Positions 40,635 through 64,000 of a stretch of DNA of 64,000 bases are shown here, in pieces. Numbering within the stretch: the stretch's first letter is position 1; each line of letters starts with the position of its first letter. The notes beneath the pieces are model-generated. The model ran no database searches and had not been told where the DNA came from. It saw only the letters and a list, made by a program, of their open reading frames with translations. Both the position numbers and the translations under genes were made by a program. Source of the DNA: a virus. Taxonomy: Duplodnaviria > Heunggongvirae > Uroviricota > Caudoviricetes. The DNA is taken from positions 1 to 64,000 of IMG/VR virus record IMGVR_UViG_3300027509_000001. The stretch is one strand, 5' to 3'.

Positions 40635-40756
40635 ATCATTAATACCATTAACCTTTAGTTACTGGAACTGCTGGTGCAGGTACTAATTTTGTTCTGATGA
40701 ATTTTCGTTTGAACATAATTTTTACTTTTTAAAGTTGTGTTAATGATTTTATTTCG

Positions 40757-40828
40757 CTCCGAGTACAGGGCTCGAACCTGTGACAAAGACTTACAAGGTC
40801 CCCGTTTTCCCATCTAAACTAACCCGGA
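40757..40828 (-). tRNA. tRNA-Thr (anticodon TGT)
   Basis: Acceptor TCCGGGT/ACTCGGA; anticodon arm GGGAC-CTTGTAA-GTCTT; T-arm ACAGG-TTCGAGC-CCTGT; 72 nt. Confidence 0.5.
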
Positions 40829-47197: not shown

Positions 47198-48061
47198 TTA
47201 GTTTAAATAGTTCCTGAATTTAATTGCAAATTTTGTTTGAAAATTTAACTGTTCATCTGTAAATCTGTCAACGAAGCAACTATAATTCATATGATTAATA
47301 CAATATTCTAATTTAGAATCTAGTCCCATGTCTACTTTTGTTGAGTCTGGATATTGCCAAGGGTGATCAAGGCCTAACCAATGCCCTATTTCATGGATTA
47401 AGGAAGATCCTACTTCATATTGAAACAGGCCCTCAAATGAAATAGCAATTGCATTATATTCTGGAGAAAATAATGGATATAATTCTGGCTTCTTTAGCGT
47501 TGGCGTAAATCCTAATAAGGTTTGCCCATTCTTTTTGTTAGTTGTCATGACAAATATATTTATAGATGTACTATCACTGTAATCAGCTAATAGTTTTCCA
47601 TAGTATGTTTTAATAGGATTCTTTCCACCGTATAAATAATCGTCGTACATTTCATCTAAACTGTATACAGAATTAAAATAATGTATAGAGTCAATCATAC
47701 TAAAAATTATTGATCCTTTATATGCTTCATTAAGAGAATTGTGAGAAGCGATCAATAACTCTATATCATTTTCGTTTAGTTTGACAGTGTCATTTGAAAC
47801 GCCAATATGATATTTAATATTAAAAATTGGAGATTTGTCAATGCTTATATCCTCATTAATTAAACTGTCGATTATTTCAGGGTTGCATTCGTTTCCTACA
47901 CATTCTAATGGCAATTCCTCAGTTGGCAATTTAGATGTATTATCTGTTTTACATCCAGAGATTATTAATATTAAACATATTATAAATAATTTTTTCATAA
48001 GGTTACTTTTAATTGATGACAACATGTGCCTTTTTAAATTTTTGCAATAAACCATGCGCAT
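47198..48061 (-). CDS. metzincin-type zinc metalloprotease lipoprotein
   Basis: Lipobox 'LIISGCKTD'; 'HEIGHWLGLDHP' = HExxHxxGxxH zinc site. Confidence 0.6.
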   Translation of the reverse strand: MRMVYCKNLKRHMLSSIKSNLMKKLFIICLILIISGCKTDNTSKLPTEELPLECVGNECNPEIIDSLINEDISIDKSPIFNIKYHIGVSNDTVKLNENDIELLIASHNSLNEAYKGSIIFSMIDSIHYFNSVYSLDEMYDDYLYGGKNPIKTYYGKLLADYSDSTSINIFVMTTNKKNGQTLLGFTPTLKKPELYPLFSPEYNAIAISFEGLFQYEVGSSLIHEIGHWLGLDHPWQYPDSTKVDMGLDSKLEYCINHMNYSCFVDRFTDEQLNFQTKFAIKFRNYLN

Positions 48062-49811: not shown

Positions 49812-50071
49812 TATGATCCTGTTTCTGCTTCCATGTTTATTAAACCATCTATATCTGCTTCCAATGGGGTTTCACATTGATTGCATAAATGTATAGGTAT
49901 TGGTATCATGACATTTCCAGGTTTGTCCATTGGAGTCGCTGACAAAGTTGCTAAGGCGAATTTAGAAATTGTCCTTAGTGCCACAACTTGTTTGAAGAAT
50001 ATACCATCGCACTCTTTACAAGTAACTCCAGTAGATTTAGATAATACTGCTTTATTCAAAGGTCCATCCAT
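49811..50071 (-). CDS. zinc-ribbon protein
   Basis: 'CKECDG...CNQCE'. Confidence 0.4.
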   Translation of the reverse strand: MDGPLNKAVLSKSTGVTCKECDGIFFKQVVALRTISKFALATLSATPMDKPGNVMIPIPIHLCNQCETPLEADIDGLINMEAETGS

Positions 50072-50522
50072 TGTCTAATAATTTGTTTCGTAATCGATTT
50101 AGTTTATATTGTTTATGAGGCATTATATCATCTATTAGATTTCCCATTTCTTCAACTTGGGATAACATAATCATGACATCTGCTAATTCTTCGCATAAAT
50201 TATCGTAAGTTTTGTTATTAGGACTTCTCCTATATTTCCTTATTGCCAATGCCAATTCTATACATTCTTCTTGAACCATATCCAATTGTTGGTCATGCCC
50301 CCATAATTCTACGGCGCCTGCGTATATTTGATCATCTGATATCTTTGTTAGTTTTTTTATTAATTCTTTATCTTTTAAAGCCCGATCAGTATAATCTCTT
50401 TCAATTGAATGGCCACATTTCCAACATGCTTTAAATCCATCTTCTGGTTTTGTTGATTTGCCTGTATCGTGGCCGCAGTTTTTGCAAGGCTGATACCATA
50501 CATCATAATCTCCTAATTTCAT
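50052..50522 (-). CDS. zinc-ribbon + MazG-like pyrophosphatase fusion
   Basis: N-terminal 'CKNCGHD..CWKCGH'; C-terminal 'VQEECIELALAI...LCEELADVMIML' (EExxE/E..D). Confidence 0.5.
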   Translation of the reverse strand: MKLGDYDVWYQPCKNCGHDTGKSTKPEDGFKACWKCGHSIERDYTDRALKDKELIKKLTKISDDQIYAGAVELWGHDQQLDMVQEECIELALAIRKYRRSPNNKTYDNLCEELADVMIMLSQVEEMGNLIDDIMPHKQYKLNRLRNKLLDNGWTFE

Positions 50523-51253
50523 ATTTCCATAATTAATTCGGTTAACAATGCCATTGCATTCAATTCCTTGTCAATGCATAAACTGTCTTGATATGCATAT
50601 TTCCCAATAACTAAAATAACTGGAGCGATTTTATTTGGAGCATATTGGTCTAGATTATTAAATAAGTAGGAATATAATTCATCAAAAGACCTAACTTTAC
50701 TATCTGCAACTATTTGTCTAATAGATTTAAATTTATCTTTTGGATTTTTATTAGATGCCAATTCGGTTACTACTTTTGAAAGATAATTACTTTCCATTCT
50801 AGTGGCTTCTGACAATGCTAGTTTACCACCAATTGAATTTGTTTGCAGTAAATTTATAACCAACCTAATGTCCGGATATCCTTGGTTTACAAGCGTAGCC
50901 AAATCTTGTTTATTGAATTCAACATTTTCTTCTTTAAGTATTTGCACCATTCGCAATGCTACTTCCTTTTTAGATGGAGGTATAACGTTAAAAGAAACAC
51001 ATCTAGATTGCAATGCTTCGATTATTTTCTCTACATAATTACATGTTAATATGAACCTACAATGCTTTGAAAAAGTTTCCATTACATTACGCAATGCCGC
51101 CTGGGCGTTGGGGGTTAGAAAATCACAATTGTGAGTTAACGTTTCATTTTGCCCGATATAGAAGTTATGATTTCCCTCTACAGATATATCGTATACGTGA
51201 CCAGTCTTATTTAATTTCTTTACGCTTTTTATTTTTATTTGTTCCAATTCCAT
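50519..51253 (-). CDS. C-intein segment fused to the C-terminal half of a gp44/RFC-like clamp-loader ATPase
   Basis: N-terminal 'GHVYDISVEGNHNFYIGQNETLTHN|C' (intein blocks F/G plus the +1 Cys), then sensor-1 'FILTCN' and 'SRC' RFC boxes. Confidence 0.65.
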   Translation of the reverse strand: MELEQIKIKSVKKLNKTGHVYDISVEGNHNFYIGQNETLTHNCDFLTPNAQAALRNVMETFSKHCRFILTCNYVEKIIEALQSRCVSFNVIPPSKKEVALRMVQILKEENVEFNKQDLATLVNQGYPDIRLVINLLQTNSIGGKLALSEATRMESNYLSKVVTELASNKNPKDKFKSIRQIVADSKVRSFDELYSYLFNNLDQYAPNKIAPVILVIGKYAYQDSLCIDKELNAMALLTELIMEI

Positions 51254-52235
51254 CGTATAATTTTTGAAGTTGTATTTTATTTTTTTCTAATTTAAAATCT
51301 GTTTCGTCAATATAATCAAGTATATTATATTCATTAACCCATATGAATTTTATATCATTGTCCTTGCAGTAATTTATGACAGATTGCATTTTATGTTTTT
51401 GCTTTTGCCATTGTGATTTTGGTTTTATTTCAAATAGTATATTCTTCTCTAGATCATGAAAATCTGCAATATATGTTCGGGACTTTCCATTTGCATCTAC
51501 ATATGGAATTCTTAATTTTTCATATAGCAAATGCTTATTTGAAGCCCAGAAACATGCCTCCCAAGAACTTCTAAATTTAAATTCGTTACCATCGAAATAT
51601 ATAATAGATGTCCAATGCGTCCAACTATTGCTAATAGGAGGAAAGAATTCTCCGTTTGCAATTTTCCTTTTCATTGTAATGCTATTTTTCAAAGCCACTT
51701 GCTTTAAATTTTCCTGCCCTTTTTCGGTTTTGTAAAATTCAGTCATTTTAATTGAGTTCTTTTTTCCGATCCGTTTAGCTACTTTGTTGCCTTCAGATGT
51801 TTTATAAAAATTCAATTTTGCTTTAGATATCTTATCTTTAGTTTCTTCACTTTGTGGTTTTCTGTTCCATGTTCGATTTTTAACACACTCTTTGCAATAT
51901 TTTCCTGTGAATCTACCTTCTCGATTACAAGAACATTTTTTAATAGTACCATGTTTTTTAACAAGTATTTTACATTCCTTACAGTATTTTGAATTCCAAG
52001 CATTTGCAGTATACCCGTTATTGCAATCTTCGCATATGTGCTCTTTGAAGTATACTACTCCGCCAAAATTATTTCTTTTTGCTGCAATTGACAATTTTCT
52101 TTTATATTCAAAAACTAGTTCATCGTATTGAACTTTACTAATGATTCCTGCCGCTAGTTTTTCTTTCCATATTACAAACGGTGATGTATTTTTTACCTGT
52201 ACTTTCATGTTTAATATATAGTTCTGCTTGAGCAA
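51207..52235 (-). CDS. free-standing homing-endonuclease-like gene between the intein halves
   Basis: Multiple zinc ribbons (CEDC..CKEC..CSC..CKEC), NUMOD-like K-rich repeats, C-terminal 'IADFHDLEKNILFEIKPK' (PD-(D/E)xK-like). Starts at TTG, in frame, 2 codons after the TAATAA that closes the N-intein ORF. Confidence 0.5.
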   Translation of the reverse strand: MLKQNYILNMKVQVKNTSPFVIWKEKLAAGIISKVQYDELVFEYKRKLSIAAKRNNFGGVVYFKEHICEDCNNGYTANAWNSKYCKECKILVKKHGTIKKCSCNREGRFTGKYCKECVKNRTWNRKPQSEETKDKISKAKLNFYKTSEGNKVAKRIGKKNSIKMTEFYKTEKGQENLKQVALKNSITMKRKIANGEFFPPISNSWTHWTSIIYFDGNEFKFRSSWEACFWASNKHLLYEKLRIPYVDANGKSRTYIADFHDLEKNILFEIKPKSQWQKQKHKMQSVINYCKDNDIKFIWVNEYNILDYIDETDFKLEKNKIQLQKLYDGIGTNKNKKRKEIK

Positions 52236-52241
52236 AACTTA

Positions 52242-52877
52242 TTAAATAATCGGTGTACCTGGAGAAATTATTGATTCATACGTATGCAATTCATCGGTCT
52301 TTACAACCTTTATTTCATTGTTCTCATCGTAAACATGCCATTTATGCTCAGCAGTACATTTCACTGTTTCTCCATTTTCTAATTCTATTTCCCATAATTC
52401 TTGTTCTCCTTTATCCCAAAAATAAAATGGTTGCCATTCGATTTGATTTGTTTTGAAGTTGTAACTTTTTACTAAGTCAGTTTCTTCTATTAATTCTTCA
52501 ATTGGAACCTTTATATAATTTCCCTCTCTGAGAATACTTACTAGCGTCCCTTCTAATAAACACTCATCAAGAATTATAACTTTCCAGTCATTAAATCCTA
52601 CATTCGAAGCAAATGTTTTTACCTTATTTCTAATAACTTCTACACTATTTTCATCTGAAGCATTAATATAAATGTGATCGCAATTAATTTCTGATACTAA
52701 AATTTTTGCGAGGGATGTTTTTCCAGTCCCAGAACTTGCATGTAGCAATAAATGTGGCATGTCATTATTATCAATATAATTTGCTATGGCCTTTTTAATA
52801 TCTTCGTTTCCAATATATTCAGACATTGTTTTTGGACGATAGCGTTCCGCCCATAACGAATTAGTTAATTTGTTCAT
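52242..52877 (-). CDS. N-terminal half of a gp44/RFC-like clamp-loader ATPase fused to an N-intein segment
   Basis: RFC box 'WAERYRPKT', Walker A 'ASSGTGKTS', Walker B 'VIILDE', then 'CLLEGTLVSIL' (intein block A) and 'CTAEHKWH' (block B), ending in TAATAA. Confidence 0.65.
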   Translation of the reverse strand: MNKLTNSLWAERYRPKTMSEYIGNEDIKKAIANYIDNNDMPHLLLHASSGTGKTSLAKILVSEINCDHIYINASDENSVEVIRNKVKTFASNVGFNDWKVIILDECLLEGTLVSILREGNYIKVPIEELIEETDLVKSYNFKTNQIEWQPFYFWDKGEQELWEIELENGETVKCTAEHKWHVYDENNEIKVVKTDELHTYESIISPGTPII

Positions 52878-53899
52878 AAGTTAGTTATTAATGAAATGAA
52901 ATTATCTTTAGTATAATGAGGATCAAATTGTTTAAAGATCTTAATTTTATTTTCTTGATAATTTTCTATATATGATTTAATAGTGTTTAAAAATTCCTTT
53001 CGATTTCTAATAAAATTTATAAAAGGAGGTTTTATTAATTTAGGACTACATCCAATATTTATACCCATGTCAATTAATGCCTGAGATTTTATTGTTAATG
53101 GCAATGCCCCTAAACATAATGCATGATAATAGTCACTTGGGTTTAAATTTAATTCTTGCATGTTAATTAATGCCATGGCAGATTTAAGAATATATTTAGT
53201 TTGCAGATAAAAATTATTTTTAATTTGCTGCAAATCTATAAAATTATATTCTGTTAATTCTTTTTGTAAAATGCCTATCATTTTTTGGGATGCATTTTTT
53301 GTATATGGATTTGATTTTACATTAAATGCAATTTCAGAAGTCATTAACTTATCATTACCATATTCTATCTTTAGATATTCGAATGGTAAATTCATTAAGG
53401 TTGCAGGTTTGAATATTTTACCTGTAAAGTCTTTTTGGTGCTTCTGTGTCGTTGTTATATTAATATTGTATATGTTGGCTAAGTGCTTCTCATATCTCAC
53501 GACATACGCTTTCCTAGAACGTTGGAAGCTATTATAATACATTCCAGTTACATTCCAAATTCCGTCATTCCAAATTCCGATTGAAAATATGTCAACAGAG
53601 TTTAACTTTGTATATTCCTGAAGATGCATTGCAATGTCATTTCTTGCATCTGTGAATAATACAATGTCTCCAGATCTAATGTTATCGATCTCTTTAAACA
53701 ATTTTGCCATTAATAGATTATTAAAATTTACTCGATGCAAATAATTGCTATTTGGAATGACTCGATTAACTGATATTAGATTTGTTTTTAGTCCGTATAG
53801 TTGAAGATCTTCCGATAAATGTGGTTGGATAACTCTCCACTCAGAATTTATCCAATTATACGGACATATTGTGTCAATAATGTGTAGAGTCCTACTCAA
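52874..53899 (-). CDS. hypothetical protein
   Basis: 341-aa ORF. Confidence 0.45.
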   Translation of the reverse strand: MSRTLHIIDTICPYNWINSEWRVIQPHLSEDLQLYGLKTNLISVNRVIPNSNYLHRVNFNNLLMAKLFKEIDNIRSGDIVLFTDARNDIAMHLQEYTKLNSVDIFSIGIWNDGIWNVTGMYYNSFQRSRKAYVVRYEKHLANIYNINITTTQKHQKDFTGKIFKPATLMNLPFEYLKIEYGNDKLMTSEIAFNVKSNPYTKNASQKMIGILQKELTEYNFIDLQQIKNNFYLQTKYILKSAMALINMQELNLNPSDYYHALCLGALPLTIKSQALIDMGINIGCSPKLIKPPFINFIRNRKEFLNTIKSYIENYQENKIKIFKQFDPHYTKDNFISLITNL

Positions 53900-54107
53900 T
53901 TATCTTAAGGTATTTAGTCTCTGTAATACTAGTCACAGACCATTCAAATACATCGGTCCTTAGCATCTCTGTAATCTTTGCTTCTGCATCTGTTGGACTG
54001 ACGGCATTGACTAGATAATCTTCATTAGATTTTTTAATCTTTCCAGTATCTGCTTGTTCGACTAGTCTAGTTATTTTAACTTTCCAGTATAAATTTGTTT
54101 TTTTCAT
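53892..54107 (-). CDS. hypothetical protein
   Basis: 71-aa ORF. Confidence 0.35.
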   Translation of the reverse strand: MKKTNLYWKVKITRLVEQADTGKIKKSNEDYLVNAVSPTDAEAKITEMLRTDVFEWSVTSITETKYLKIIE

Positions 54108-54189
54108 AATTTGTATTTAAAAATTTAAAAATTTTTTATGCGCAAAAATTTAACACACAAGGCCTTTTGACCATTCTTATGCGCAGATA

Positions 54190-54648
54190 TTATAAGAAAT
54201 ACGTTGCTGAATTTTTTTCGTGTTCTCTGAATTCACATGAAACTAGTCTCACCCTTCCCCCAGTTTCGGCGTCTACCCAAGCCGCTATGTGATTTCCTAT
54301 AAATTCTGCAAATCTTTCTGCTCCAGTATCTTCTACTATTCTCAATTGAATTATTCCCATGGAATCTAGATCTAGGAATTGCTCTAATGCTGGGTCATCT
54401 TCTGCTATAATCGTAGTATGATCTAGTAACCAACTTAACCATTCGTCTGGGCTTACTCCATCTATCAGGCATTTTGCCCTTTTAAAGCCTCCGAAATCAA
54501 ACACCCAATTTCTAGGATCTAATTGGCCTTGAAATGTAAATTTTACAGAAGTCCCATAACCATGTAAGAAACGACAATGAGTCTTTTCTGCTCTCCATTG
54601 CCTGAAAGTAGTACTATAACCGTCTTTTATTTTTGTTGATTGATACAT
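54190..54648 (-). CDS. QueD / 6-pyruvoyl-tetrahydropterin-synthase-like protein
   Basis: 'FRQWRAEKTHCRFLHGYGTSVKF' resembles the PTPS/QueD 'AAHRL..HKCGRLHGHSF' signature. Confidence 0.4.
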   Translation of the reverse strand: MYQSTKIKDGYSTTFRQWRAEKTHCRFLHGYGTSVKFTFQGQLDPRNWVFDFGGFKRAKCLIDGVSPDEWLSWLLDHTTIIAEDDPALEQFLDLDSMGIIQLRIVEDTGAERFAEFIGNHIAAWVDAETGGRVRLVSCEFREHEKNSATYFL

Positions 54649-55176
54649 TTATATGATATTTATTACTCTTGAATTTCTATTTAAACCATTTAGGTCATCC
54701 ATACCCCATCCCGTGAGCCATTCTCCTTCTTCCACCTCAATTCCAGTGATTATTTCTCTGTAGTAGTCATTTAAAAATGAATGGTCAACTCCTTTCCTTT
54801 TACATAATGCTACAAAATATAAATCATAAGCTCCATTAACATGTTTCGCTAGGCCCTTTGCAGTATTTCCAGAATCTAAAATGTCGTCATAAAAATAAAT
54901 CCTTTTAACACCTTCTGGAATATTAATGTTGTTCATAATTTCTATGAACTCTTCTTGTGTCTTTCCATTATACGAACGGGTTCGAATAAAATCAATGTGA
55001 GTATTAATATCTAAGCTAATTGATTTCATAACATGCGTGAAAAACATGAATCCGCCTCTTAAAACACATATTGATAATATTGGATCTGAATTATCGTATT
55101 CGCATTCTTCAATTTTCTTAGTTATGTTTCTTCTGATTGCATTTTCAATATCATGTTCAAAATATGCTTTTTTCAT
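54649..55176 (-). CDS. type I phosphoribosyltransferase (HPRT-like)
   Basis: PRPP-binding motif 'RIYFYDDILDSGNTAKG'. Confidence 0.55.
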   Translation of the reverse strand: MKKAYFEHDIENAIRRNITKKIEECEYDNSDPILSICVLRGGFMFFTHVMKSISLDINTHIDFIRTRSYNGKTQEEFIEIMNNINIPEGVKRIYFYDDILDSGNTAKGLAKHVNGAYDLYFVALCKRKGVDHSFLNDYYREIITGIEVEEGEWLTGWGMDDLNGLNRNSRVINII

Positions 55177-55394
55177 AAGTTTCTTTTGTCAAGTATTACT
55201 AATTTTTCTACAATATAGAGATTATTTTCGCTTACTAATACGGCATAAAAGGTCTTTCTACTTCGATGTTGGGCGTATATAAAGTTCCTTACCTTTCCTT
55301 CGTATTTTGCTAAAAACCTGTCTCCACGTTTGAATTTTTTCGCCATAATAAAAATAAAAATATTTAATTGAAAAGCCCAACCCGCTGGCGCCAA
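55173..55394 (-). CDS. hypothetical protein
   Basis: 73-aa ORF. Confidence 0.35.
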   Translation of the reverse strand: MAPAGWAFQLNIFIFIMAKKFKRGDRFLAKYEGKVRNFIYAQHRSRKTFYAVLVSENNLYIVEKLVILDKRNL

Positions 55395-55460
55395 ATATAA
55401 TTGTTAATAAAGATGGATGATTTTCTCCACAAATACCTAATAAATGTCGAATTGTTTCTA

Positions 55461-56120
55461 TCATATTTTTTCCATTAAAGAAATTGATTTTGTTTGTGGC
55501 CACCTACTATTGTGGTCTTTTTTACCATAGCCACAGACATACCCATTAACACTTTCATCATCTACTAAAGTTATTGCAGACATTGCAAAGTTTCGATTAT
55601 CGGCTATTACTGCTGGCTTGTTGGGACCTACTAAGTATACTTCCTGTCCTTGAATTTCGGCGCAATAATCCACTATCTGATCTGTTTCTTCATAAGCTAT
55701 GACAACTGAATACCTTTCGTTGTCAACATCGTCTTGCTCAGCTTTGTTGTCATATTGATATTTAGTATAGAATTCAAAATCAAATTCTAAATATGACAAC
55801 AACTTAGATACAAACATGAAAGAGTCTTGCATGTTACATACCACAATATCGATATCCTTACCCCGATACAATAAATTCAATCTTTTAGCTAATTTTTTGA
55901 TCGCCTGAGTGATGTGTTTTCCTTGCAAGATCGTATGGTCTTTATACATTGGCGAAGTTTCTTCATGTTCGTGAACAATGCTTTTAAAAGCTATATCATA
56001 TAATTGTGGCAATAATTCGTAAGGCACATTTGCTTCAAAGCTATTTACCGCACTAATCACTTCATTCCTAATATATAACCCGCTTGCTTCTTCTAATATT
56101 TCTTCTATTGATAATTTCAT
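55461..56120 (-). CDS. hypothetical protein
   Basis: 219-aa ORF. Confidence 0.45.
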   Translation of the reverse strand: MKLSIEEILEEASGLYIRNEVISAVNSFEANVPYELLPQLYDIAFKSIVHEHEETSPMYKDHTILQGKHITQAIKKLAKRLNLLYRGKDIDIVVCNMQDSFMFVSKLLSYLEFDFEFYTKYQYDNKAEQDDVDNERYSVVIAYEETDQIVDYCAEIQGQEVYLVGPNKPAVIADNRNFAMSAITLVDDESVNGYVCGYGKKDHNSRWPQTKSISLMEKI

Positions 56121-56125
56121 TTGAA

Positions 56126-56857
56126 TTATTGTTGTCCAGCTACTAAATAATATTTAGATCTAAAATCTTCTCCAGAAAATGTTGCTATTAACAATCCTTG
56201 AGAACTCAATGAAACCTTTCCTGTTTCTGCGTCTTTATTTGAGTTTAAAACGTCTAAAAATTGATTTCCATCAAATAACAATGTTTCAAAACCAGCAGGT
56301 GCTTCAACGTCTATTGGAATTTTAATGTTGTTTGTATTTGTTTTGGAATAATTAACAACTAACTCAATAGATCCATTGTTATTGGTAAAGGCTATAACAT
56401 CTGATTCAGCGATCGCCTTTTTAGCCTTAATATAGTTATCTGTAAAAATTGAGTTTACTTCAATTGTTACTTCTCCAGTTGGTATATCCTTTAATTCTGG
56501 TGGTGCTTTTATAACATCTAAATCTGACAATACAAATGTTACATTGAATTGATCGTCTTTTAATAGAATGTTAGCTTTTCTTCCTCCAACTTCTTGAACA
56601 GTAATGTTGAATTCATTTTGAAGGATCTTGATCATGTTTTCCAACTTAGTGGTTTCGTAAACACCGAATTCTCCTATTGGAAATTCAACATTCAAAACTT
56701 GGACGAAACCTAATAAACTCTTATCCTCAGTAATAAAAGACGTCGTTAATTTTGTTCCATCTGAAACCATTTTTATAGCATTATCAGGTCTTCCTGAAGC
56801 GTTTGCATCCAGATTATATTTCTGAATGAATTTTAAGATACTCGATTTATTTATCAT
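56126..56857 (-). CDS. sliding clamp (T4 gp45-like)
   Basis: 243 aa, sits next to the polymerase and clamp-loader genes, and resembles gp45 in overall composition; tentative. Confidence 0.4.
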   Translation of the reverse strand: MINKSSILKFIQKYNLDANASGRPDNAIKMVSDGTKLTTSFITEDKSLLGFVQVLNVEFPIGEFGVYETTKLENMIKILQNEFNITVQEVGGRKANILLKDDQFNVTFVLSDLDVIKAPPELKDIPTGEVTIEVNSIFTDNYIKAKKAIAESDVIAFTNNNGSIELVVNYSKTNTNNIKIPIDVEAPAGFETLLFDGNQFLDVLNSNKDAETGKVSLSSQGLLIATFSGEDFRSKYYLVAGQQ

Positions 56858-56877
56858 TTTTTTTAATTTTGAAGTGG

Positions 56878-56897
56878 CTTAAATATACGTAAAATAT
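56878..56897 (-). promoter_or_regulatory. promoter-like motif B copy
   Basis: 'cttaaatatacgtaaaatat' equals 24573-24592. Confidence 0.35.
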
Positions 56898-56929
56898 TTC
56901 ACATATCCAAATTTATCTGCATTTCCATT

Positions 56930-57844
56930 TTATTTTTTAAAATTGAAAAATTTATTAATTAATGCATTGAATTCTATATTACCAAAATCTAATGCATCCC
57001 AATAATTTTGGATTTTGTTTTCTAATCTGCTTTCAAATATTCTAACTCGGTCTGCATATGTTTCCATATATTCTAATATTTCTGGAGGATTGCTTTCTCT
57101 AGATATTGCAAACGAATCAAACTTCCATGGATTATCTATTAGATATGCCCACATAATTTTGTCTCCTTCTTTTATAGGAGGCATCGATGCTATACCTAAT
57201 TTATCCATTAAAGCATTGTGATTCAAAGCTGCTTTATAATGAACTGGCGTTCTTTTTTTAAACTCTCCAAATTTACCAGTTTTCCATTTGTCTAGGCTGT
57301 TAACTCCTACTGGTATTAATATGTCTGATAGCTTTTGTGTTGGCAATGATTGTTTGAAATCTCTTACCATTTCGTTTAATTCCTCTTTCGAAGAGTCATG
57401 TAATATACAATCTAATATCTTTTCAACAAATGATTTAAATTTTAATGGAAAATCTGCCCTGACTGAATCCAATCCCTTTACATCCATTTTGTTTTTAGCT
57501 ACACCTTCTTCGTCTACAATCCATTGAGCATAACGTTTTTTAGCTATCCATAATGCTCTTTTTGCAATTAATTCTTGCTTTATATCCCACCCGTGATCTG
57601 TTACATTATGCAACTTTAAAGCATATGTATCGTAACTTTTATTAATGTAAGATTGGACATCATTGATTATTGGTTTTGATAATGCAATAATTTCTTCATC
57701 AGTATAGTTATCCATAGGTCCATGGCGATGCACAAATAATGGTTCTATTGGTTCGAATATGCTGTCCGTATCAGTATATATACAAAAATTATAATATGTA
57801 TTATGTTGATTATCAGCTAGTTGTGTTATATTTTTAATTTTCAT
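56930..57844 (-). CDS. family-B DNA polymerase, C-terminal part (43B-like)
   Basis: Motif C 'IYTDTDS' (YGDTDS) and the 'KKRYA' KKRY motif. Confidence 0.7.
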   Translation of the reverse strand: MKIKNITQLADNQHNTYYNFCIYTDTDSIFEPIEPLFVHRHGPMDNYTDEEIIALSKPIINDVQSYINKSYDTYALKLHNVTDHGWDIKQELIAKRALWIAKKRYAQWIVDEEGVAKNKMDVKGLDSVRADFPLKFKSFVEKILDCILHDSSKEELNEMVRDFKQSLPTQKLSDILIPVGVNSLDKWKTGKFGEFKKRTPVHYKAALNHNALMDKLGIASMPPIKEGDKIMWAYLIDNPWKFDSFAISRESNPPEILEYMETYADRVRIFESRLENKIQNYWDALDFGNIEFNALINKFFNFKK

Positions 57845-58673
57845 TTTCCAAATAATTTAAACATTTTCTTAGTACCTTTAATGGATTTTCTTTGTAATCT
57901 ATGTAATTTACCCTCAATATAGTAAATCCAAATGAATTTGTTAATTCGTCTCTGAATTTATCTTTTTCTGGGTCGTGCCAGTATTTGCAATCAAATTCTA
58001 TTATCTTGTCTCCCAATAAAAAATCGAATTTGTAATATCTGCCATTTGTTACCAATTTATATTCTCCATAATTTTCTGCAAATAAGGCCTCGTCTTTCTT
58101 TGCCGGGGGCAAAAATTCGTATATATTCCAAAATAACTCCTGAGATATATTGCTATAATTTCCAAACTTATTGGCTTCAATTCGATTTTCATCTTTATAA
58201 TATTCATAATCATCACTTGTCCAGTTATATTCAGACATTATAAATTCCCTAAATGATTTATATTCTGAAATACGCTCATGAGGTTGTTTAATTTTTGGTC
58301 CATTATTAAAATTATTGTTGATACGTGTTTGTCGAAGTGCTTTCTTTATTTTATTTTTATTAAACTGATCAAATTCTTTTTTAGTCATTCCATGTTGCTG
58401 AGACATATATTCAAAGCTATTTGTTTCTGCCTGACGATTACAATAAATTTGCCAACGATGCTGTCCTTTTTCAACACCATATCGCTTTATCATATTTTCA
58501 AGTGTCTGCTTTCTCTTAGCAGTAATTGATGGATGTTCTAAAACTGCGCCTGGGAATTTTGCTGAATACGATTTAAACGTCATATCATGTTTATGTTTCA
58601 GGTGAGTGGTTGATATTCGTTTATACCAATTTAAACATTCTAAGCATTGGATTCTATTTGTGTCATCATTCAT
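57834..58673 (-). CDS. zinc-finger + PD-(D/E)xK-like endonuclease (homing-endonuclease-like) in the polB insertion
   Basis: N-terminal 'CLECLNWYKRISTTHLKHKH' (same finger type as the tRNA-array genes); C-terminal 'KFDFLLGDKIIEFDCKYWHD'. Confidence 0.45.
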   Translation of the reverse strand: MNDDTNRIQCLECLNWYKRISTTHLKHKHDMTFKSYSAKFPGAVLEHPSITAKRKQTLENMIKRYGVEKGQHRWQIYCNRQAETNSFEYMSQQHGMTKKEFDQFNKNKIKKALRQTRINNNFNNGPKIKQPHERISEYKSFREFIMSEYNWTSDDYEYYKDENRIEANKFGNYSNISQELFWNIYEFLPPAKKDEALFAENYGEYKLVTNGRYYKFDFLLGDKIIEFDCKYWHDPEKDKFRDELTNSFGFTILRVNYIDYKENPLKVLRKCLNYLENEN

Positions 58674-58727
58674 TATACTGATACCTTTATATATAAGTAG
58701 TGTCTGTGTATCTTTTTAATAACTTTT

Positions 58728-58982
58728 CTAGTTTAAAACATTACTCAAAAAATACCCTGTTACTGTCCCTAAGGCTGCGCCTGCTGCATATATTACTCTT
58801 TCTAATCTGTTTGCAGCCTTAACGCTGGTAACGTTTAATGTCCAATTATAAGATAATAGAAATGATGATATTGTCATTCCAACTAAGTTAGAATTGGCAA
58901 TATATACGATATTAACAACGACTAGAAGAACTTGAATAAATGCGCCAATAAATAATTTGAAATATGCTTTAGATTTACTCAT
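58728..58982 (-). CDS. small membrane protein
   Basis: 84 aa with two TM segments. Confidence 0.35.
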   Translation of the reverse strand: MSKSKAYFKLFIGAFIQVLLVVVNIVYIANSNLVGMTISSFLLSYNWTLNVTSVKAANRLERVIYAAGAALGTVTGYFLSNVLN

Positions 58983-59137
58983 TCTTTAGATTGACATAAT
59001 TAATAAGTGCTTCTCTTGCTATCAAAGGATCAATCTTAAATAACATATCGGTCGAATCGTAAGTTAATGCATAATCGATAAGATTAGTTGCTATTTTTAA
59101 ATCGTTGATTTCTCCTTCTTTGATATTTCTTAATTGT

Positions 59138-59470
59138 TTAACTGTTAGTCCCATTGTCTTTTATTTTATAGTCATATGATAAATCCTCTTCTTTTATGCT
59201 ACCTGGAATTTCCATGTCATTGTAATTATACATTATTTCAAATAATATTTTTAAATCCCTTTCAGGTTGTTCAAAAAAGTTATGCTGAATTGGTTCAAGT
59301 TTAAAATAATCATTTTCCAATGCATAATAATCTTGAAAATCCATGGCATGTTTGTACTTAAGATGAGTTATTGTTATTTTTTTAAATACTTCTCCGCATA
59401 TTAAACATTCACGATATCGTCTTGAAATATTCGAAAATATATTTTCCTTCATGCTTATCAAATCCATCAT
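59138..59470 (-). CDS. zinc-finger protein (HEG-associated finger only)
   Basis: 'CLICGEVFKKITITHLKYKH'. Confidence 0.4.
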   Translation of the reverse strand: MMDLISMKENIFSNISRRYRECLICGEVFKKITITHLKYKHAMDFQDYYALENDYFKLEPIQHNFFEQPERDLKILFEIMYNYNDMEIPGSIKEEDLSYDYKIKDNGTNS

Positions 59471-60474
59471 GCTAATTTTACTTTTATATTTTTATAATTC
59501 TTATTGAAAATATACATTGATATCGAATGTAGTTCTATATATTCTTTAATTGAATTATAAATCTTACCTGTTTCTAGGCATTTCAACTTGGTATAATTGC
59601 CTCCAGTACCATCTAGATGTCGAAGTTTCATTCTATCAGCTGATATTTTAGCTAAGCGTTTAAGTTCTTTCTTTGATTTATTCTTTTTACTATTACTTAT
59701 CTTTTGTTTATGCCCTTTAGTTAATACCTTTCCCCTAAATGCGTCTCCTATCTTTTTTCTTCGTTTGGATTCGGTAATTGGGTCTACTATTCTATTTAAT
59801 TGAGCTTCTGACATTCGTTGTATTTGTTTTTTTGTGTATACTCCAGTTCTTCCTTTGTTCCATGGAATTTGACCAATATGAGAATCTGATAATTTTTTTC
59901 TGTGTTCGCTGCTTTTCATTTTAGTTAAAAATTTATCGTGCCACCCATCAACGTTATCTTTTCTACTTTGTATTACACTTTTACTGATTTTCTGTCGTGT
60001 TTTTTGTGTCTTTGGCTTATTACAATACCTTTTGAAAGCAGTAGAATTTTTTAAGCTATTGGATATTAATAATTTGGTTTTATTTGATACCTTTCTTCCT
60101 GTACGAACTTCACTTAATAACTGCCTATACTCGATTGAGTTGTACATTGAATTTGGATCTGCCCATAACGCCTTTACCGCTTCACTTATTTTTTTATTTA
60201 CTATGGGCCCTAAATTTCCGCCATTTCCACCAGACGAAATATTATATTCTGGTTTATACAAGTCTATATAAAATATTTCATAATAATCGGCTTCTTCTCG
60301 TGTATCAACATTAATTACTATTTCCTTTTTAAAAGATTCCAGGCCATATTTATGTATCGCCAATTTTATTAATTTACCTGAACCATAATAGTTTATAGAG
60401 TCTTCAGGTGCCTTAGAAGATTGCCCTATATAGATTTTACCATTAATTTTATTTGTTATTTTGTAGATGTACAT
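59467..60474 (-). CDS. GIY-YIG homing endonuclease
   Basis: 'MYIYKITNKINGKIYIGQS' (GIY...YIG) plus a basic NUMOD-like C-terminal DNA-binding region. Confidence 0.7.
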   Translation of the reverse strand: MYIYKITNKINGKIYIGQSSKAPEDSINYYGSGKLIKLAIHKYGLESFKKEIVINVDTREEADYYEIFYIDLYKPEYNISSGGNGGNLGPIVNKKISEAVKALWADPNSMYNSIEYRQLLSEVRTGRKVSNKTKLLISNSLKNSTAFKRYCNKPKTQKTRQKISKSVIQSRKDNVDGWHDKFLTKMKSSEHRKKLSDSHIGQIPWNKGRTGVYTKKQIQRMSEAQLNRIVDPITESKRRKKIGDAFRGKVLTKGHKQKISNSKKNKSKKELKRLAKISADRMKLRHLDGTGGNYTKLKCLETGKIYNSIKEYIELHSISMYIFNKNYKNIKVKLA

Positions 60475-60509
60475 TTTGAGATATTTCCTGTCGTTGTCAT
60501 AAAAACTAA

Positions 60510-62336
60510 TTATATATGCTTGACAAGTTCAAATACATATTTTTGTACACCCTCCACTTCTATTTTATCAAATCCATTTTTTTTCACTTTGCTGCCATCT
60601 TCAAATTCTATTTCATACATGTTATTATATTCTTTTAGCTCTTTATTGTAAAATCGATTCCCCATTCTTGTTGCCCAATTAATTACACTGACTCCGGTAA
60701 GTGTCACGCCTTCGCCATTATCTTTATCGTAAAATCTGAAGCTTGGTAATAACAATACTCCATATAATGAATTCAATAGGATTTTTGTTACCAATTGCTT
60801 CTTGTCATAATATTTTTCTTGTACAGAATCTTTTAACTTACCATATTTCTTTTTAAGATCCTTGTACCCCTTTCTTTCATCAAACCATGCCAATAATACC
60901 GATGGAATTAGTCCCTTTTTATCTAATTTATACATGACACCATTTGATGCAATTGATAAATTATTTTCTGTCAAATACTGATGCACTTCCTTTGAACCAT
61001 CTAGAGTTTTATGAATGTCAGTAGCTTCCGTTTGAGCGAAAAATGCTGTTGGAGATTCGTCATTAAAAAATGTCAGTGTATACATTTTATTTGCGTTTTT
61101 CGCATACTCTTCTTCATCCCAATTTTCAATTTTTCCAAATTTAGTTTCTGGAGATATATTTAGAGATATAATATTGAAAGGGTACAGCGAAGTCAAATCC
61201 AAGTCGTAGACCCATGTATACAATCCTGGTGTTGGTTCTTTAACAAAGGCTCCTTTAGCTTTACCTTTCGATTGACTGACATTTGAACTTGCAACTAAAT
61301 TATTTCTTCGTAAATACGTTAACAATGAACCCTCTAGATACTTGCTCGTATAAATAATATCTTCATATGGAACATGGCCTTTATGGCATATACCCAATGC
61401 AATATCAATATAATCTAATTTTTGATCCATCGACACTAATAATTCTACATCAATAATACCATACGCAATAAATGACATTAAGTCATCTCTAAATAATTGA
61501 TCTAGATTTCCCGAGTATTCAATTTTACCTCTAGATAGTTCCTTTTTGGCAATAGAATCTAATTTATAACTAGACTCTTCTGAATACCCGAATTTCTTAT
61601 ATAACATTAAATAATCAAGTTGAGATACACCTGATATTTTGATTGTTAACCGATTCGAATATTTGTTTGTATTCCTACGAACTTTTCCTATTGGGCTTAA
61701 TAAATTTGCATAATTATAATCTAATATATTAACAGTTCTATTGTATAGGTATGGGATATCATAGTAGTCTAAATTCCACCCGGATATAATAGTTGGGTTT
61801 ATCTTTCTAAATTCCTTTAAAAAATACGCTAGCATTTTCGTTTCATCCGAAAATATTATCAATTCTACATTGCATATTATTTCAGTCTTTGGAATCTTAA
61901 CTTGAACATTTTTTCTTTGTGGAGTCTCTGCTTCGTCAAGAAGTAACATTGTATATTCATTCGATCCCTTTACGCAATATTGTATTCCAAAGATTTCGTT
62001 TGCTGCATCTTCTACGCTTGAATATTTTTCGTTTTTACGGACTTCTATATCCATAAATAATATTGTATTGTCAGCTATGTCATCACTTTCCGAATATAGG
62101 TCTATTAAAGTTCTAGTGGTTGGAGATACATTATGTTCAAACACCATGTTCATTTGCTCGGCAGTTTCGGACCACGAATCAACTTTTGTCACTCGCTGTC
62201 CTTCAATTGTTAATAACTCTCCGTTGGCATCTGGAACATATGCATATGATTCGTATGGAAATTTTTTATAACCAAGTTTATCATCCCACAGGTGAATAAT
62301 TTCGTCGTTTCTATCGTATTGAATGTTAGTATACAA
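60510..62336 (-). CDS. family-B DNA polymerase, N-terminal part (exonuclease and palm up to motif B; 43A-like)
   Basis: Motif B 'KILLNSLYG'; the ORF stops ~85 aa after motif B; motif C is in the downstream ORF at 56930..57844. Confidence 0.7.
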   Translation of the reverse strand: MYTNIQYDRNDEIIHLWDDKLGYKKFPYESYAYVPDANGELLTIEGQRVTKVDSWSETAEQMNMVFEHNVSPTTRTLIDLYSESDDIADNTILFMDIEVRKNEKYSSVEDAANEIFGIQYCVKGSNEYTMLLLDEAETPQRKNVQVKIPKTEIICNVELIIFSDETKMLAYFLKEFRKINPTIISGWNLDYYDIPYLYNRTVNILDYNYANLLSPIGKVRRNTNKYSNRLTIKISGVSQLDYLMLYKKFGYSEESSYKLDSIAKKELSRGKIEYSGNLDQLFRDDLMSFIAYGIIDVELLVSMDQKLDYIDIALGICHKGHVPYEDIIYTSKYLEGSLLTYLRRNNLVASSNVSQSKGKAKGAFVKEPTPGLYTWVYDLDLTSLYPFNIISLNISPETKFGKIENWDEEEYAKNANKMYTLTFFNDESPTAFFAQTEATDIHKTLDGSKEVHQYLTENNLSIASNGVMYKLDKKGLIPSVLLAWFDERKGYKDLKKKYGKLKDSVQEKYYDKKQLVTKILLNSLYGVLLLPSFRFYDKDNGEGVTLTGVSVINWATRMGNRFYNKELKEYNNMYEIEFEDGSKVKKNGFDKIEVEGVQKYVFELVKHI

Positions 62337-62365
62337 ATTTTAAGTTTTATTTTTTTTTAATAGGC

Positions 62366-62521
62366 AGTCCATGTCTTTCCACATGTATCACATTTGTAAA
62401 TACAATTTTTACCACTAGCGAGCAATACGCCCCAGTCAACATGTCCGAAAACACATGGACCATATTTTTGTAGCATCCATCTTCTATATTTCTCTATATA
62501 TTTTCTCATCATCCGAAAAAT
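62366..62521 (-). CDS. small zinc-ribbon protein (51 aa)
   Basis: MMRKYIEKY...CVFGH...CIYKCDTCGK; preceded by 'AATTTTTCGG'. Confidence 0.3.
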
Positions 62522-62523
62522 TT

Positions 62524-62694
62524 TAATAAACGCCAGATTGTGTACAATTGTGATATTTCTTGTTCAGCTTTTGGATTCCATTGTTAGGAAAATATCCATA
62601 ATCCATAAAGGGTAGTTTATAACCATACGACCACTGTATATGATGAATACGATGAATAAATGTTAAATATTGGGCTAGTCTTTTAATTTTCATC
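62524..62694 (-). CDS. small hypothetical protein (56 aa)
   Basis: ATG preceded by the same 'AATTTTTTCGG' leader as its neighbour. Confidence 0.3.
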
Positions 62695-63958
62695 CGAAAA
62701 AATTATGTTCTTTTAATTTGAATTCTTCTCCTACATTATCTAATTTAGTAAACAATTTTAAATTATCTTCGTATATAGATTTTGCACTATCTCCATTCAA
62801 TGGAGCTTTTACCATTTGGTCTATTACCATCATTAATTTATATAAGTCTGGCCCTGTTACTTGTTCTAAAATATATGGATGCAAGTCCATAAAGTTTTCT
62901 ACTTGGTCCATTGCATCTTTAAAAACAAATAAATTATGAGCTTGAATTGCAGCCCAACCTTGAATTGTCCATTCTGCCATATCCTTGCCGGTATATAACC
63001 TTTCTAATGTATCGTCGAACTTAGTTGTCTTTGGCAGTTTGAAAAATTCTCCTGGTTGTAGATTCGACGTTGTATGAATTCCCTTATCATTCTTAACACT
63101 CTTACCAGTAATCTTCGGGATGTGTACAACTTTGAAATTCAATTTCTTCCAGTCCGCTGCGACATAACATGTGCCATATAAAATCGATCTAGATGGCGAT
63201 GAACTATCTGTTGTCACCTGCATAGGAGATCCTATTTCATTCAATGACTTTTGCATCTGCGAGAATACAAAGAAATCTGTAATTTTTGAAGCCCCTAGGA
63301 AATGCAAATAATGGTTTCTATCCATTAACTGTTCTTTGTTCTCAAAGAGTACTGCTAAAGATACCATTATATTACTAATCTTTCCAGCACCTCCAATTCC
63401 CCATCCGTTAAATCCAAAGTCTTTTACTTGTCTGTACCACTCAGCGTATGAAGAATATTCAGAACCCTGTAATACATTTAAAAACTTAGTTGAACCAGAT
63501 TGATTCTCGTCAAAGTACTTAAAGTTAATTAACGATTCGTCAAGTGCTTCTTGAAATTTTCCTTCCCATTGCATTCGAGGTGGTATATCCAAATTCATTG
63601 CAATGTGCGAATTACCTTCTAACCAAGAAAACATTGTTTCTCGTAGCATCTTTTTCTTTTCACCTACATACTTAACGGCTCCTGATGCAATTTGGAATCC
63701 ACCCGAATCGCCTATTGTTAATACGCCAGGTTCTAACAATCCCATTTCTTGCGATATAGTTGGCTTCTTGTAATAATGACCACCAGTAATTAGATAATAT
63801 GGATGCCTATACCCATCTGGATAATTGGCGTCATAAAAACGCATGGTGGATTTCTCCGGGTCGTTCCATGTCTCCTTGCGATGCATTGCTGCTGCTACGT
63901 TTCCGACAGAAAATGATGGAAAGTAGATATATTTTCTATCCTTGTATTGCTGCTTCAA
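62690..63958 (-). CDS. dpdA: tRNA-guanine-transglycosylase-family protein, DpdA-like (DNA 7-deazaguanine transglycosylase)
   Basis: The TGT catalytic motif 'VLTIGDSGGFQIASG' ('DSGGFQ'); TIM-barrel-sized; no C-terminal zinc site seen; the annotated start is TTG, so the true start is uncertain. Confidence 0.55.
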   Translation of the reverse strand: MKQQYKDRKYIYFPSFSVGNVAAAMHRKETWNDPEKSTMRFYDANYPDGYRHPYYLITGGHYYKKPTISQEMGLLEPGVLTIGDSGGFQIASGAVKYVGEKKKMLRETMFSWLEGNSHIAMNLDIPPRMQWEGKFQEALDESLINFKYFDENQSGSTKFLNVLQGSEYSSYAEWYRQVKDFGFNGWGIGGAGKISNIMVSLAVLFENKEQLMDRNHYLHFLGASKITDFFVFSQMQKSLNEIGSPMQVTTDSSSPSRSILYGTCYVAADWKKLNFKVVHIPKITGKSVKNDKGIHTTSNLQPGEFFKLPKTTKFDDTLERLYTGKDMAEWTIQGWAAIQAHNLFVFKDAMDQVENFMDLHPYILEQVTGPDLYKLMMVIDQMVKAPLNGDSAKSIYEDNLKLFTKLDNVGEEFKLKEHNFFG

Positions 63959-64000
63959 TTTCTTTTATTCTTTGTGGAGAGAATTCATTGAACGAATTCA

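Follow-up and report, generated by a model that had tools for sequence, protein, structure and literature searches.

A probable DNA-guanine transglycosylase from an apparently distinct DpdA-like clade in an uncultured T4-like phage

The virus record IMGVR_UViG_3300027509_000001 (Caudoviricetes) was analysed over its first 64,000 nt, referred to here as the window. At 62690..63958, on the minus strand, the window carries an open reading frame (ORF) of 422 aa with a TTG start that probably encodes a DNA-guanine transglycosylase, an enzyme that would exchange guanine (G) in the phage DNA for preQ0 or a derivative after replication. A preliminary description of the window had proposed a DpdA-like transglycosylase and 7-deazaguanine in the genomic DNA, and this proposal is supported by the catalytic Asp residues, the biosynthetic pathway encoded nearby, synteny and a homologue in phage PA5oct. 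It is already known that phage DpdA proteins together with a preQ0 pathway give rise to 7-deazaguanine DNA that evades restriction. What is new is a large clade outside the five named subfamilies, its link to PA5oct, the loss of the zinc site within the clade, and companion genes for phosphoribosyltransferases (PRTases), a glycosyltransferase (GT)-like protein and inositol-3-phosphate synthase (MIPS).

The ORF is real and lies on the minus strand; reading 62690..63958 on the plus strand gives many stops. Contig L001 is identical to window positions 52690..64000 (0 mismatches over 11,311 nt), encodes exactly the same transglycosylase and extends 9,958 nt beyond the window, so that about 74 kb of the 188.5-kb genome was viewed. 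The window has a G+C content of 31.5%. No nucleotide-level match was found in INPHARED by megablast with 24 kb of the window, and the nearest DNA polymerase of a cultured phage, that of Microcystis phage Mel-JY01, is 40.7% identical. The surrounding genome is T4-like, with a split family-B DNA polymerase, a gp44/gp62 clamp loader, a Dda-like helicase, a ligase and a dNMP kinase.

The catalytic residues of the transglycosylase are conserved throughout its family. When 251 family members, each of at least 330 aa, were aligned to the family hidden Markov model (HMM), D84, S85, G87, D124, P126, H219 and D251, which include all three catalytic Asp, were invariant (251 of 251) and G86, Q89, W186 and G222 were nearly invariant. 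The GDSGGFQ motif pointed out in the preliminary description is therefore no chance occurrence, since G83, D84, S85, G86, G87 and Q89 are each invariant or nearly so across the 251 homologues. The three Asp-bearing motifs are located as follows.

63692..63712, minus strand: GDSGGFQ, aa 83-89; the predicted roles are general acid/base for D84 and base stacking for F88
63587..63589, minus strand: D124 in NLDIPP, the predicted guanine-edge-binding Asp; the motif is like LDIPT of the archaeosine tRNA-guanine transglycosylase (TGT)
63197..63217, minus strand: VTTDSSS, aa 248-254; predicted nucleophile D251, through which enzyme and DNA would be covalently joined in the intermediate

The last Asp stands in TTDSSSP, and the D-S-S-S sequence is also found in phage 9g DpdA1 (CDSSSW) and, as variants, in the PA5oct, GR11A, 2.275.O and Phosso proteins. 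In an hhalign comparison with Escherichia coli Tgt (16.6% probability), four pairs of motifs are in register (GDSGGFQ with TDSGGFQ, MNLDI with MIFDE, LNVLQG with GIIQG, and GWGIGG with GYAVGG), and D124 pairs with the Asp of IFDE. The roles of the corresponding residues in bacterial DpdA (bDpdA) have been defined by crystallography and mutagenesis, and its double-displacement mechanism has been demonstrated with D95A and D256A mutants (PMC10164549). Motif order and spacing suggest the following equivalences.

bDpdA D95 (acid/base): putatively D84
bDpdA F99 (base stacking): putatively F88
bDpdA D130 (base-edge binding): putatively D124
bDpdA H181-G182 (base-edge motif): putatively Q164-G165
bDpdA G206-G207 (backbone contacts): putatively G189-G190
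bDpdA D256 (nucleophile): putatively D251

Position 164 varies within the family, being Gln in 202, His in 45 and Ser in 4 of the 251 sequences.

Fold comparison places the protein in the TGT/DpdA superfamily. An AlphaFold2 model built from 23 homologues (pLDDT 83.6, pTM 0.85) has a TGT-type (beta/alpha)8 barrel, and all of the top 50 Foldseek matches in the PDB were TGTs (about 1e-8). When proteins of the BFVD database were ranked by fold, an uncultured phage protein came first (TM 0.81), followed by proteins matching 2.275.O gp468 and GR11A_148 in length, then Motura, then the DpdA2 of phage nt-1 (R9TGF0, 1.3e-8) and lastly the DpdA1-type proteins of actinophages (about 1e-5 to 1e-6). DpdA (PDLC02807) was the sole match in the PADLOC library (19.4 bits, E=9e-5), and the same model recognizes the validated DpdA1 of phage 9g less well (E=0.02) than it does the window protein. 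The NCBIfam DpdA model (NF041059) gave 18.5 bits and E=7e-4, short of its curated cutoff of 200 bits, and the NCBIfam model tgt_general gave E=0.014. PF01702, the TGT family of Pfam, was matched weakly by 11 of the 23 relatives on their own (best 8.6e-7). The comparison with Pfam and the DpdA clades that the preliminary description had suggested thus came out divided, with no direct match to PF01702 and with weak matches, below cutoff, to the DpdA models. Membership of the superfamily nonetheless appears solid because the fold comparison is consistent, the weak HMM matches agree with it and the structure model is a confident one.

The whole pathway from GTP to preQ0 (FolE, QueD, QueE and QueC), as judged by homology, is encoded within 20 kb on one strand. 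Upstream of the transglycosylase, and all within 9 kb, the order is QueC-like, HAD, MIPS, FolE, denV and QueE, while QueD lies on the other side. The genes are as follows.

54190..54648, minus strand: QueD (6-carboxytetrahydropterin synthase), T-fold (PF01242 1e-10; phrog_2389 "QueD-like" 3e-36)
63936..64000, minus strand: 3' end of a QueC-like gene (last 65 nt of a 291-aa gene, the remainder being extrapolated to 64001..64811)
L001, same strand as the ORF: minimal HAD phosphatase, 125 aa, with DxDGV, TGR, K and EDD motifs, matching the phosphatase part of phrog_415
L001, same strand as the ORF: MIPS, 374 aa (TIGR03450 7e-93)
L001, same strand as the ORF: FolE (PF01227 1.5e-49)
L001, same strand as the ORF: denV-like glycosylase, between FolE and QueE
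L001:1367-3223, about window 70736..72592 by extrapolation, minus strand: QueE, 618 aa with an intein

The QueD-like gene, like the PRTase gene next to it, had been recognized at these positions in the preliminary description, and both identifications are borne out, on the minus strand. The same description placed FolE, QueE and QueC outside the window; this holds for FolE and QueE, but not for QueC, whose last 65 nt are inside, and a search past the window found all three genes just beyond its end on L001. The end of the QueC-like gene (L001:9148-10023; PF06508 E=8e-18, phrog_1550 3.7e-23) overlaps the start of the transglycosylase gene by 23 nt, and its product has an SGGxDS P-loop and a C-terminal Cys cluster. 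The intein of QueE (360 aa, residues 42-401) is inserted inside the radical-SAM Cys motif ('C HVKVPG ... SIVSHN / C WFGEKGG'), and the spliced protein of 258 aa is 53.5% identical to QueE of Cellulophaga phage phiST. QueD is likewise related to its phiST counterpart (55% identical to CGPG_00071) and has no match to the phiST DpdL paralogue CGPG_00067. The MIPS and HAD pair (L001:7657-9158) lies between FolE and QueC, past the end of the window.

The genomic setting of the family points to DNA. The gene is part of a T4-like replication module in 8 of 8 contigs (L001, L007-L009, L011-L013), with DNA polymerase B and the clamp loader adjacent or close by; all 8 have FolE, and most have QueD, QueE and QueC or Gat-QueC. 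The gene directly upstream of the transglycosylase varies: it is QueC in the window phage and L008, a methyltransferase in L007 (with Gat-QueC further upstream), an ornithine-cyclodeaminase-like gene with a PALP enzyme, after two QueC paralogues, in L011, and a GT-like gene in L012 and L013. Such variation would be expected of a family that serves various 7-deazaguanine derivatives. Among cultured phages, gp316 of PA5oct (L003:6722-9405 together with gp317) is located between the DNA polymerase and QueE. PA5oct DNA resists cleavage at G-containing restriction sites, from which its authors infer a modified G, and they point to QueE and PTPS and name no transglycosylase (PMC12191111). By homology, gp316 is the likely insertase behind this modification, and PA5oct-like jumbo phages would thereby be supplied with the missing transglycosylase for an experimentally inferred modification of G. 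In Vibrio phage 2.275.O, gp468 adjoins QueF, a YhhQ-like transporter, QueC, an amidotransferase (Gat) and FolE. Every virus known to have 7-deazaguanine DNA encodes a DpdA-family protein (PMC10516641). The genes specific to queuosine (QueA, QueG and QueH) were not found in the scanned part of the 74 kb, which comprised every called gene of the L001 extension and the window ORFs of about 150 aa or more, and the protein has no PUA domain. The replication-module synteny, PA5oct, the context in 2.275.O and the lack of queuosine genes and of a PUA domain together argue for DNA rather than tRNA as the substrate.

The proposed function can be set out as follows. The phage FolE, QueD, spliced QueE and QueC-like enzymes would make the 7-deazaguanine base from GTP, the product being preQ0, or else its amide precursor ADG should the reaction of the divergent QueC-like enzyme end there. 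The transglycosylase would flip a guanine out of newly replicated phage DNA; attack of D251 on C1' would expel the guanine and leave an intermediate in which enzyme and DNA are covalently joined, D84 serving as general acid. The incoming free 7-deazaguanine would be held by D124, Q164 and the backbone of G189-G190, stacked between F88 and L221, and D84, now acting as base, would help N9 of the new base to resolve the intermediate. Some or all of the G of the phage would thus become a 7-deaza base, blocking restriction enzymes and other DNA-targeting defences; the replacement measured across the known subfamilies ranges from <0.1% to 100% of G (PMC10516641). The default predicted base is dPreQ0 or dADG because QueF, ArcS and Gat were not seen in the scanned part of the 74 kb. 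In this account the fold, the conserved residues, the gene content and the synteny are shown; that DNA and not tRNA is the substrate, which base is inserted, how much of the G is replaced and that the PRTase serves salvage are inferred. Genomes with modified G have a practical bearing on sequencing, cloning and the behaviour of phage DNA toward restriction enzymes and CRISPR.

The last step of the proposal concerns the guanine that is released. Two PRTase-like genes lie near QueD.

54649..55176, minus strand: Hpt-like 6-oxopurine PRTase with a phosphoribosyl pyrophosphate (PRPP) loop, 'YFYDDILDSGNT' (TIGR01203 HGPRTase 2.4e-18; PF00156 1.6e-10)
55461..56120, minus strand: second, degenerate PRTase-like ORF, 219 aa, role uncertain (sub-threshold matches to PF00156, 5e-5, and TIGR01203, 7e-6)

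The Hpt-like PRTase would convert excised guanine to GMP, feeding replication and, via GTP, the FolE pathway. Its gene directly adjoins QueD in the window and has a homologue in L007, while a small Gpt-like PRTase is encoded directly upstream of QueC or of the transglycosylase in L008 and L009, and one of the same type is found in phiST. Four of the eight contigs have an Hpt- or Gpt-type PRTase no more than 10 kb from the DpdA-like gene. That two non-orthologous PRTases of like predicted activity occur in one neighbourhood suggests that this activity is selected for, and its role is most likely the salvage of guanine freed by base exchange. A tblastn search of cultured phages with the Hpt-like PRTase gave no match, and no paper discussing a link between PRTases and deazaguanine clusters was found.

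The family of the window protein was compared with references from four of the five subfamilies by hhalign and with the family HMM, and with DpdA4 through its Pfam model. The searchable literature names bDpdA, DpdA1, DpdA2, DpdA3 and DpdA4 and no further subfamilies. The comparisons gave the following values.

Own family: family HMM E 1e-175 to 1e-208
PA5oct gp316, Phosso gp440 and 2.275.O gp468: hhalign 99.6%, 2e-23, full length (PA5oct); HMM 9e-31 to 1e-33
GR11A "TGT domain" type: hhalign 97.4%, 1e-11; HMM 3e-15
DpdA2, Moby gp042: hhalign 93.0%, 3.5e-7; HMM 2e-6
DpdA2, KVP40.0122: hhalign 83.7%, 8e-6; HMM 6e-3
DpdA1, phage 9g: hhalign 0.2%, no similarity; HMM none
DpdA3, phiST CGPG_00065 (259 aa): hhalign 0.5%, no similarity; HMM none
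E. coli Tgt: hhalign 16.6%; HMM none

The alignment of the window protein with PA5oct gp316 spans 396 columns. At the BLASTP level the window protein reaches E=0.21 against KVP40 DpdA2, tblastn found no match to it in nt-1 or KVP40, and it has no match to DUF6610 (PF20314, the DpdA4 family; HVTV-1 gp69), for which three of 23 relatives gave E values of at least 0.053. Since the HMM and hhalign comparisons match the PA5oct type over its full length and the named DpdA subfamilies remotely or not at all, the protein appears, by sequence, to lie outside bDpdA and DpdA1-4 and to belong to a distinct clade. Membership of DpdA3 was a first guess, CP220 being likewise an AT-rich T4-like phage, and was rejected given the lack of hhalign or HMM similarity to the phiST protein and the lengths of 422 and 259 aa. 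DpdA1 was rejected on the comparison with phage 9g. DpdA2 fails at the BLAST level and shares remote profile similarity over the barrel core only, making it a relative and not the family to which the protein belongs. The GR11A type was also considered as the home family; it is related, but less closely than the PA5oct type, and it has retained the zinc site. The clade had 484 matches in the 90% database and comprises 1191 clusters at 50% identity, many of the matches coming from marine surveys (Tara). Its cultured relatives are all annotated as hypothetical proteins and are absent by name from the searchable DpdA literature. A large family, almost all of it unannotated, would thus gain a name and a function, and 7-deazaguanine modification of DNA is probably common in uncultured T4-like phages, marine ones included.

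The likenesses to characterized systems differ from one subfamily to the next. The PA5oct type (Pseudomonas Wroclawvirus, Sinorhizobium phage Phosso and Vibrio phage 2.275.O) shares DSGGFQ, LD(I/V)P, HxLG, D(S/A)(S/A)SP and an HN relic with the window protein, has no CxCxxC and is encoded beside DNA polymerase and deazaguanine genes. Its members are only 24-30% identical to the window protein over part of the length, are 120-175 aa longer through insertions and come from jumbo rather than T4-like phages, and PA5oct has Ser at position 164. The DpdA2 proteins (nt-1 YP_008125322, KVP40.0122 and Moby gp042) come from T4-like phages and have remote homology in the barrel core, but their motif is DSGGLQ instead of DSGGFQ and the region C-terminal of the barrel does not align; modification by DpdA2 has been measured as low, about 0.1% of G or less (PMC10516641). 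In the DpdA1 system of phage 9g and CAjan (Queuovirinae) the transglycosylase is encoded next to the FolE, QueD, QueC, QueE, DNA polymerase and clamp genes, lacks CxCxxC and has DSG(A/G)F and DSSS motifs. That system belongs to a siphovirus, and its protein of 317 aa, as against 422 aa, has no detectable sequence homology. Insertion of preQ0 into DNA has been shown experimentally for the DpdA1 of phage 9g (PMC10516641).

Bacterial DpdA (Salmonella Montevideo, PDB 7UI4), which inserts preQ0 into DNA within the Dpd restriction-modification system, has the same three Asp and an aromatic residue four positions past the first of them, and in both proteins the nucleophile strand is followed by a short helix and a beta-hairpin. 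The window protein is 14% identical to it, lacks CXCX2CX22H and has Gln for His181. In the AlphaFold2 model, a loop of about 35 residues predicted with low confidence takes the place of the 70-residue Ins8 four-helix bundle, and there is a C-terminal helical extension. No DpdB partner, ParB-like protein or other Dpd cluster protein was found among the ORFs scanned within the 74 kb, and the role is one of bacterial defence in the one case and of phage-encoded self-protection in the other. The tRNA-modifying TGTs resemble the window protein in DSGGFQ (the same as in bacterial Tgt), in LDIP (as in the archaeosine TGT, ArcTGT), in the Gln at the base edge and in an HN pair at the place of the zinc-ligand His. 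They differ in that the window protein is without the three zinc Cys, the PUA domain and the C-terminal domains, and is found in a DNA-replication context.

Several observations weigh against the proposed function. The ORF has no match in Pfam at E<=1, PF01702 (gathering threshold 26.3 bits) included, and none in PHROG, while sequence searches of the PDB, with the single sequence and with a 23-sequence profile, returned spurious matches to antibodies and MinC only. The superfamily assignment rests on structure prediction together with weak HMM matches, and the putative equivalences to bDpdA residues on motif order, spacing and the hhalign alignment of 16.6% probability. The base-edge residue, Gln164, is like that of tRNA TGTs and not the His of bDpdA. 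Of the pathway enzymes, the QueC-like one is divergent, reaching 51.8 bits where the cutoff is 150, and QueD has CxxxHGY rather than CxxxHGH. The scan that found no QueF, ArcS or Gat covered part of the 74 kb, and the other 60% of the genome may hold these genes or a DpdC-like gene. Finally, the only Cys of the window protein, C264, is not conserved, and there is no CxCxxC motif, the site being kept in bDpdA and TGTs.

The missing zinc site had been seen correctly in the preliminary description, which took its absence as a hallmark of DpdA enzymes. That rule is wrong: the crystal structure of bDpdA has a CXCX2CX22H zinc site, stated to be conserved in the DpdA family (PMC10164549), and the full site, CxC(P)xC, is kept in 45 of the 251 family members. 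In these 45 the first Cys aligns mostly to position 310 and the motif is 21-35 residues ahead of the HN pair. The window protein retains a relic of the site.

62933..63034, minus strand: zinc-site relic, P309-K-T-T-K-F-D315 ... H341-N342, with the three Cys lost and the His kept

D315 is invariant among the closer relatives. ArcTGT and GR11A have PCxCxxC...HN, the GR11A-type phage protein keeping CNCAVC...HN, while the motif is missing from phage 9g DpdA1, phiST DpdA3 and the PA5oct-type proteins. The zinc site has therefore been lost secondarily within the family, because the 45 relatives keep it at the homologous position, and its loss tells nothing about whether DNA or tRNA is the substrate. 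That the TGT zinc site can disappear within one family is of value to studies of structure and function, and it sets right an annotation rule that is easily adopted.

Two further groups of genes accompany the transglycosylase and bear on what base might be made. One is a glycosyltransferase-like gene.

52874..53899, minus strand: GT-B-type glycosyltransferase-like protein, 341 aa, with no Pfam match of its own; membership of the system is tentative

Several homologues of this ORF have PF00534 and the JGI name "glycosyltransferase"; the protein was considered as a sliding clamp, which was rejected because the homologues indicate a GT-B glycosyltransferase. A homologue directly adjoins the DpdA-like gene in PA5oct (gp317), L012 (9017-9997) and L013 (8832-9998) and lies within 10 kb of it in L007 and L011. 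The other group is the MIPS and HAD pair. In Stenotrophomonas phage Moby (Menderavirus) the order is FolE, MIPS, a 123-aa protein, QueC-like, transglycosylase and QueE, and the MIPS/HAD order is also found in other Menderavirus. The FolE of Moby is 39% identical to that of the window phage, while its transglycosylase is a DpdA2, 35% identical to KVP40.0122. A shared cassette with different transglycosylases means that two very different DpdA types occupy the same slot. The inositol genes inside the deazaguanine cluster are not a one-off. Together, the PRTases, the GT-B-like protein and the MIPS and HAD pair are concrete leads that could point to guanine recycling and to new hypermodified bases.

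Three other explanations were weighed, of which one makes the transglycosylase an accessory. A PRTase could couple free 7-deazaguanine to PRPP before replication, kinases and ribonucleotide reductase could carry the product to a dNTP and the polymerase could incorporate it, leaving the TGT-like enzyme to patch or to do something else. ToyH of toyocamycin biosynthesis, which couples a free base to PRPP, provides a model for such a route. It would account for the recurrence of two non-orthologous 6-oxopurine PRTase types in these clusters and in phiST, in which G is fully replaced, for the dNMP kinase and MazG-like pyrophosphatase encoded in the window and for the SLOG or nucleoside-deoxyribosyltransferase-like genes of related clusters, and CP220-infected cells have been reported to contain the ADG nucleoside in their cytoplasm (PMC10516641). 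No element of the cluster is more constant than the transglycosylase, however, and this enzyme keeps all of its catalytic residues, which would be odd for an accessory enzyme; BLAST finds no PRTase in four of the eight contigs, and guanine salvage accounts for the PRTase equally well. A nucleotide-level route is thus unlikely. The enzyme might instead act on tRNA and tune translation by placing preQ0, preQ1 or a related base at position 34 (or 15) in tRNAs of the phage or its host. The Menderavirus papers annotate their homologous cluster in this way, JGI and GenBank label relatives "queuine tRNA-ribosyltransferase", Gln164 agrees with the Gln of tRNA TGTs and not the His of bDpdA, and the phage has tRNA genes. 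On the other hand, a G34-U35-N anticodon is absent from all tRNAs detected in the window, the PUA or C-terminal tRNA-binding domain and the zinc subdomain are missing, QueF as well as QueA, QueG and QueH went unfound in the scanned part of the 74 kb, and the gene has a fixed position within the DNA replication module. In the tested phages that have both DpdA-family and preQ0 genes, it is the DNA that contains the base (PMC10516641). A function in tRNA modification is accordingly considered quite improbable.

The remaining explanation keeps DNA as the substrate and enlarges the base. The QueC-like ligase, MIPS and HAD, and the GT-B neighbour would build a sugar- or cyclitol-bearing 7-deazaguanine, before or after insertion. 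The shared order of FolE, MIPS, HAD, QueC-like and transglycosylase genes in Moby fits this idea, as does the fact that MIPS (56%) and HAD (52%) are more similar between the two phages than is QueC (26%) or the transglycosylase; the GT-like gene adjoins the DpdA-like gene in PA5oct, L012 and L013, and the variable upstream gene (methyltransferase and Gat-QueC in L007; two QueC, PALP and ornithine cyclodeaminase in L011) suggests diversification of the base. This evidence is purely associative, though: MIPS and HAD are missing from the other seven contigs of the family, the GT-like gene also belongs, as a fixed component, to the T4-like replication module and may have another target, and no enzyme that could make the link, such as a deacetylase or an activating enzyme, was identified. 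To our knowledge, no inositol- or sugar-bearing deazaguanine has been described. Such a base is therefore very unlikely here; if real, it would be a class of hypermodification so far undescribed. The boldest form of the idea is a very doubtful one as well: a sixth, zinc-optional DpdA subfamily formed by the ORF and PA5oct gp316, common in uncultured T4-like phages, that works with a guanine-recycling PRTase, a GT-B protein and, here and in Menderavirus, MIPS and HAD to give DNA decorated with sugar- or cyclitol-bearing 7-deazaguanine. Post-replicative exchange of G for preQ0 or a derivative remains the preferred reading.

Some related clusters have features of their own. At L011:6824-10011, two QueC paralogues, a PALP (PLP-dependent) enzyme and an ornithine-cyclodeaminase-like protein precede the DpdA-like gene; by analogy, the latter pair is like SbnA/SbnB of diaminopropionate synthesis and hints at an amino-acid-conjugated 7-carboxy-7-deazaguanine. 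In L007 (a 171-kb contig; 1722-10001), Gat-QueC of the archaeosine route, a methyltransferase and a PPDK-like gene lie upstream of the DpdA-like gene, and nearby are genes for a 363-aa adenylosuccinate-synthetase-like (PurZ-sized) protein and a 410-aa Thy1-like protein, so that possibly more than one base is modified. The window itself encodes in a row at 19422..21593 (minus strand) a small PPDK_N/PEP-utilizer "swivelling His" protein of 318 aa, an unassigned 231-aa protein and a 176-aa methyltransferase. These were considered as homologues of the L007 genes and rejected, as Pfam domains are shared only and there is no BLAST similarity.

Other features of the window concern nucleotide metabolism, translation and gene structure. 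A MazG-type nucleotide pyrophosphohydrolase is encoded next to the clamp loader (50052..50522, minus strand) and the dNMP kinase at 29668..30243 (minus strand); the deazaguanine cluster of phiST also holds a MazG-like gene. ARAGORN detected five tRNA genes at 37233..40828 (minus strand), one of them a tRNA-His with the anticodon ATG and not GTG and two with undetermined two-base "anticodons"; the G34-U35-N sequence lacking in all five is the target of tRNA TGT. Two adjoining group-1 glycosyltransferases of 381 and 427 aa are found at 44773..47194 (minus strand), next to an unannotated ORF of 287 aa (47198..48061). The large subunit of the clamp loader, gp44 (50519..52877, minus strand), is split by an intein into an N-terminal AAA part with the start of the intein (52242..52877), a 342-aa endonuclease-like ORF (51207..52235) and a C-terminal piece with the splicing end of the intein and the Gp44 lid (50519..51253). 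The family-B DNA polymerase (56930..62336, minus strand) is divided between two ORFs, 60510..62336 and 56930..57844, which are separated by a GIY-YIG/NUMOD3 homing endonuclease (59467..60474) and several small ORFs, among them a second, zinc-finger/endonuclease-like ORF (57834..58673).

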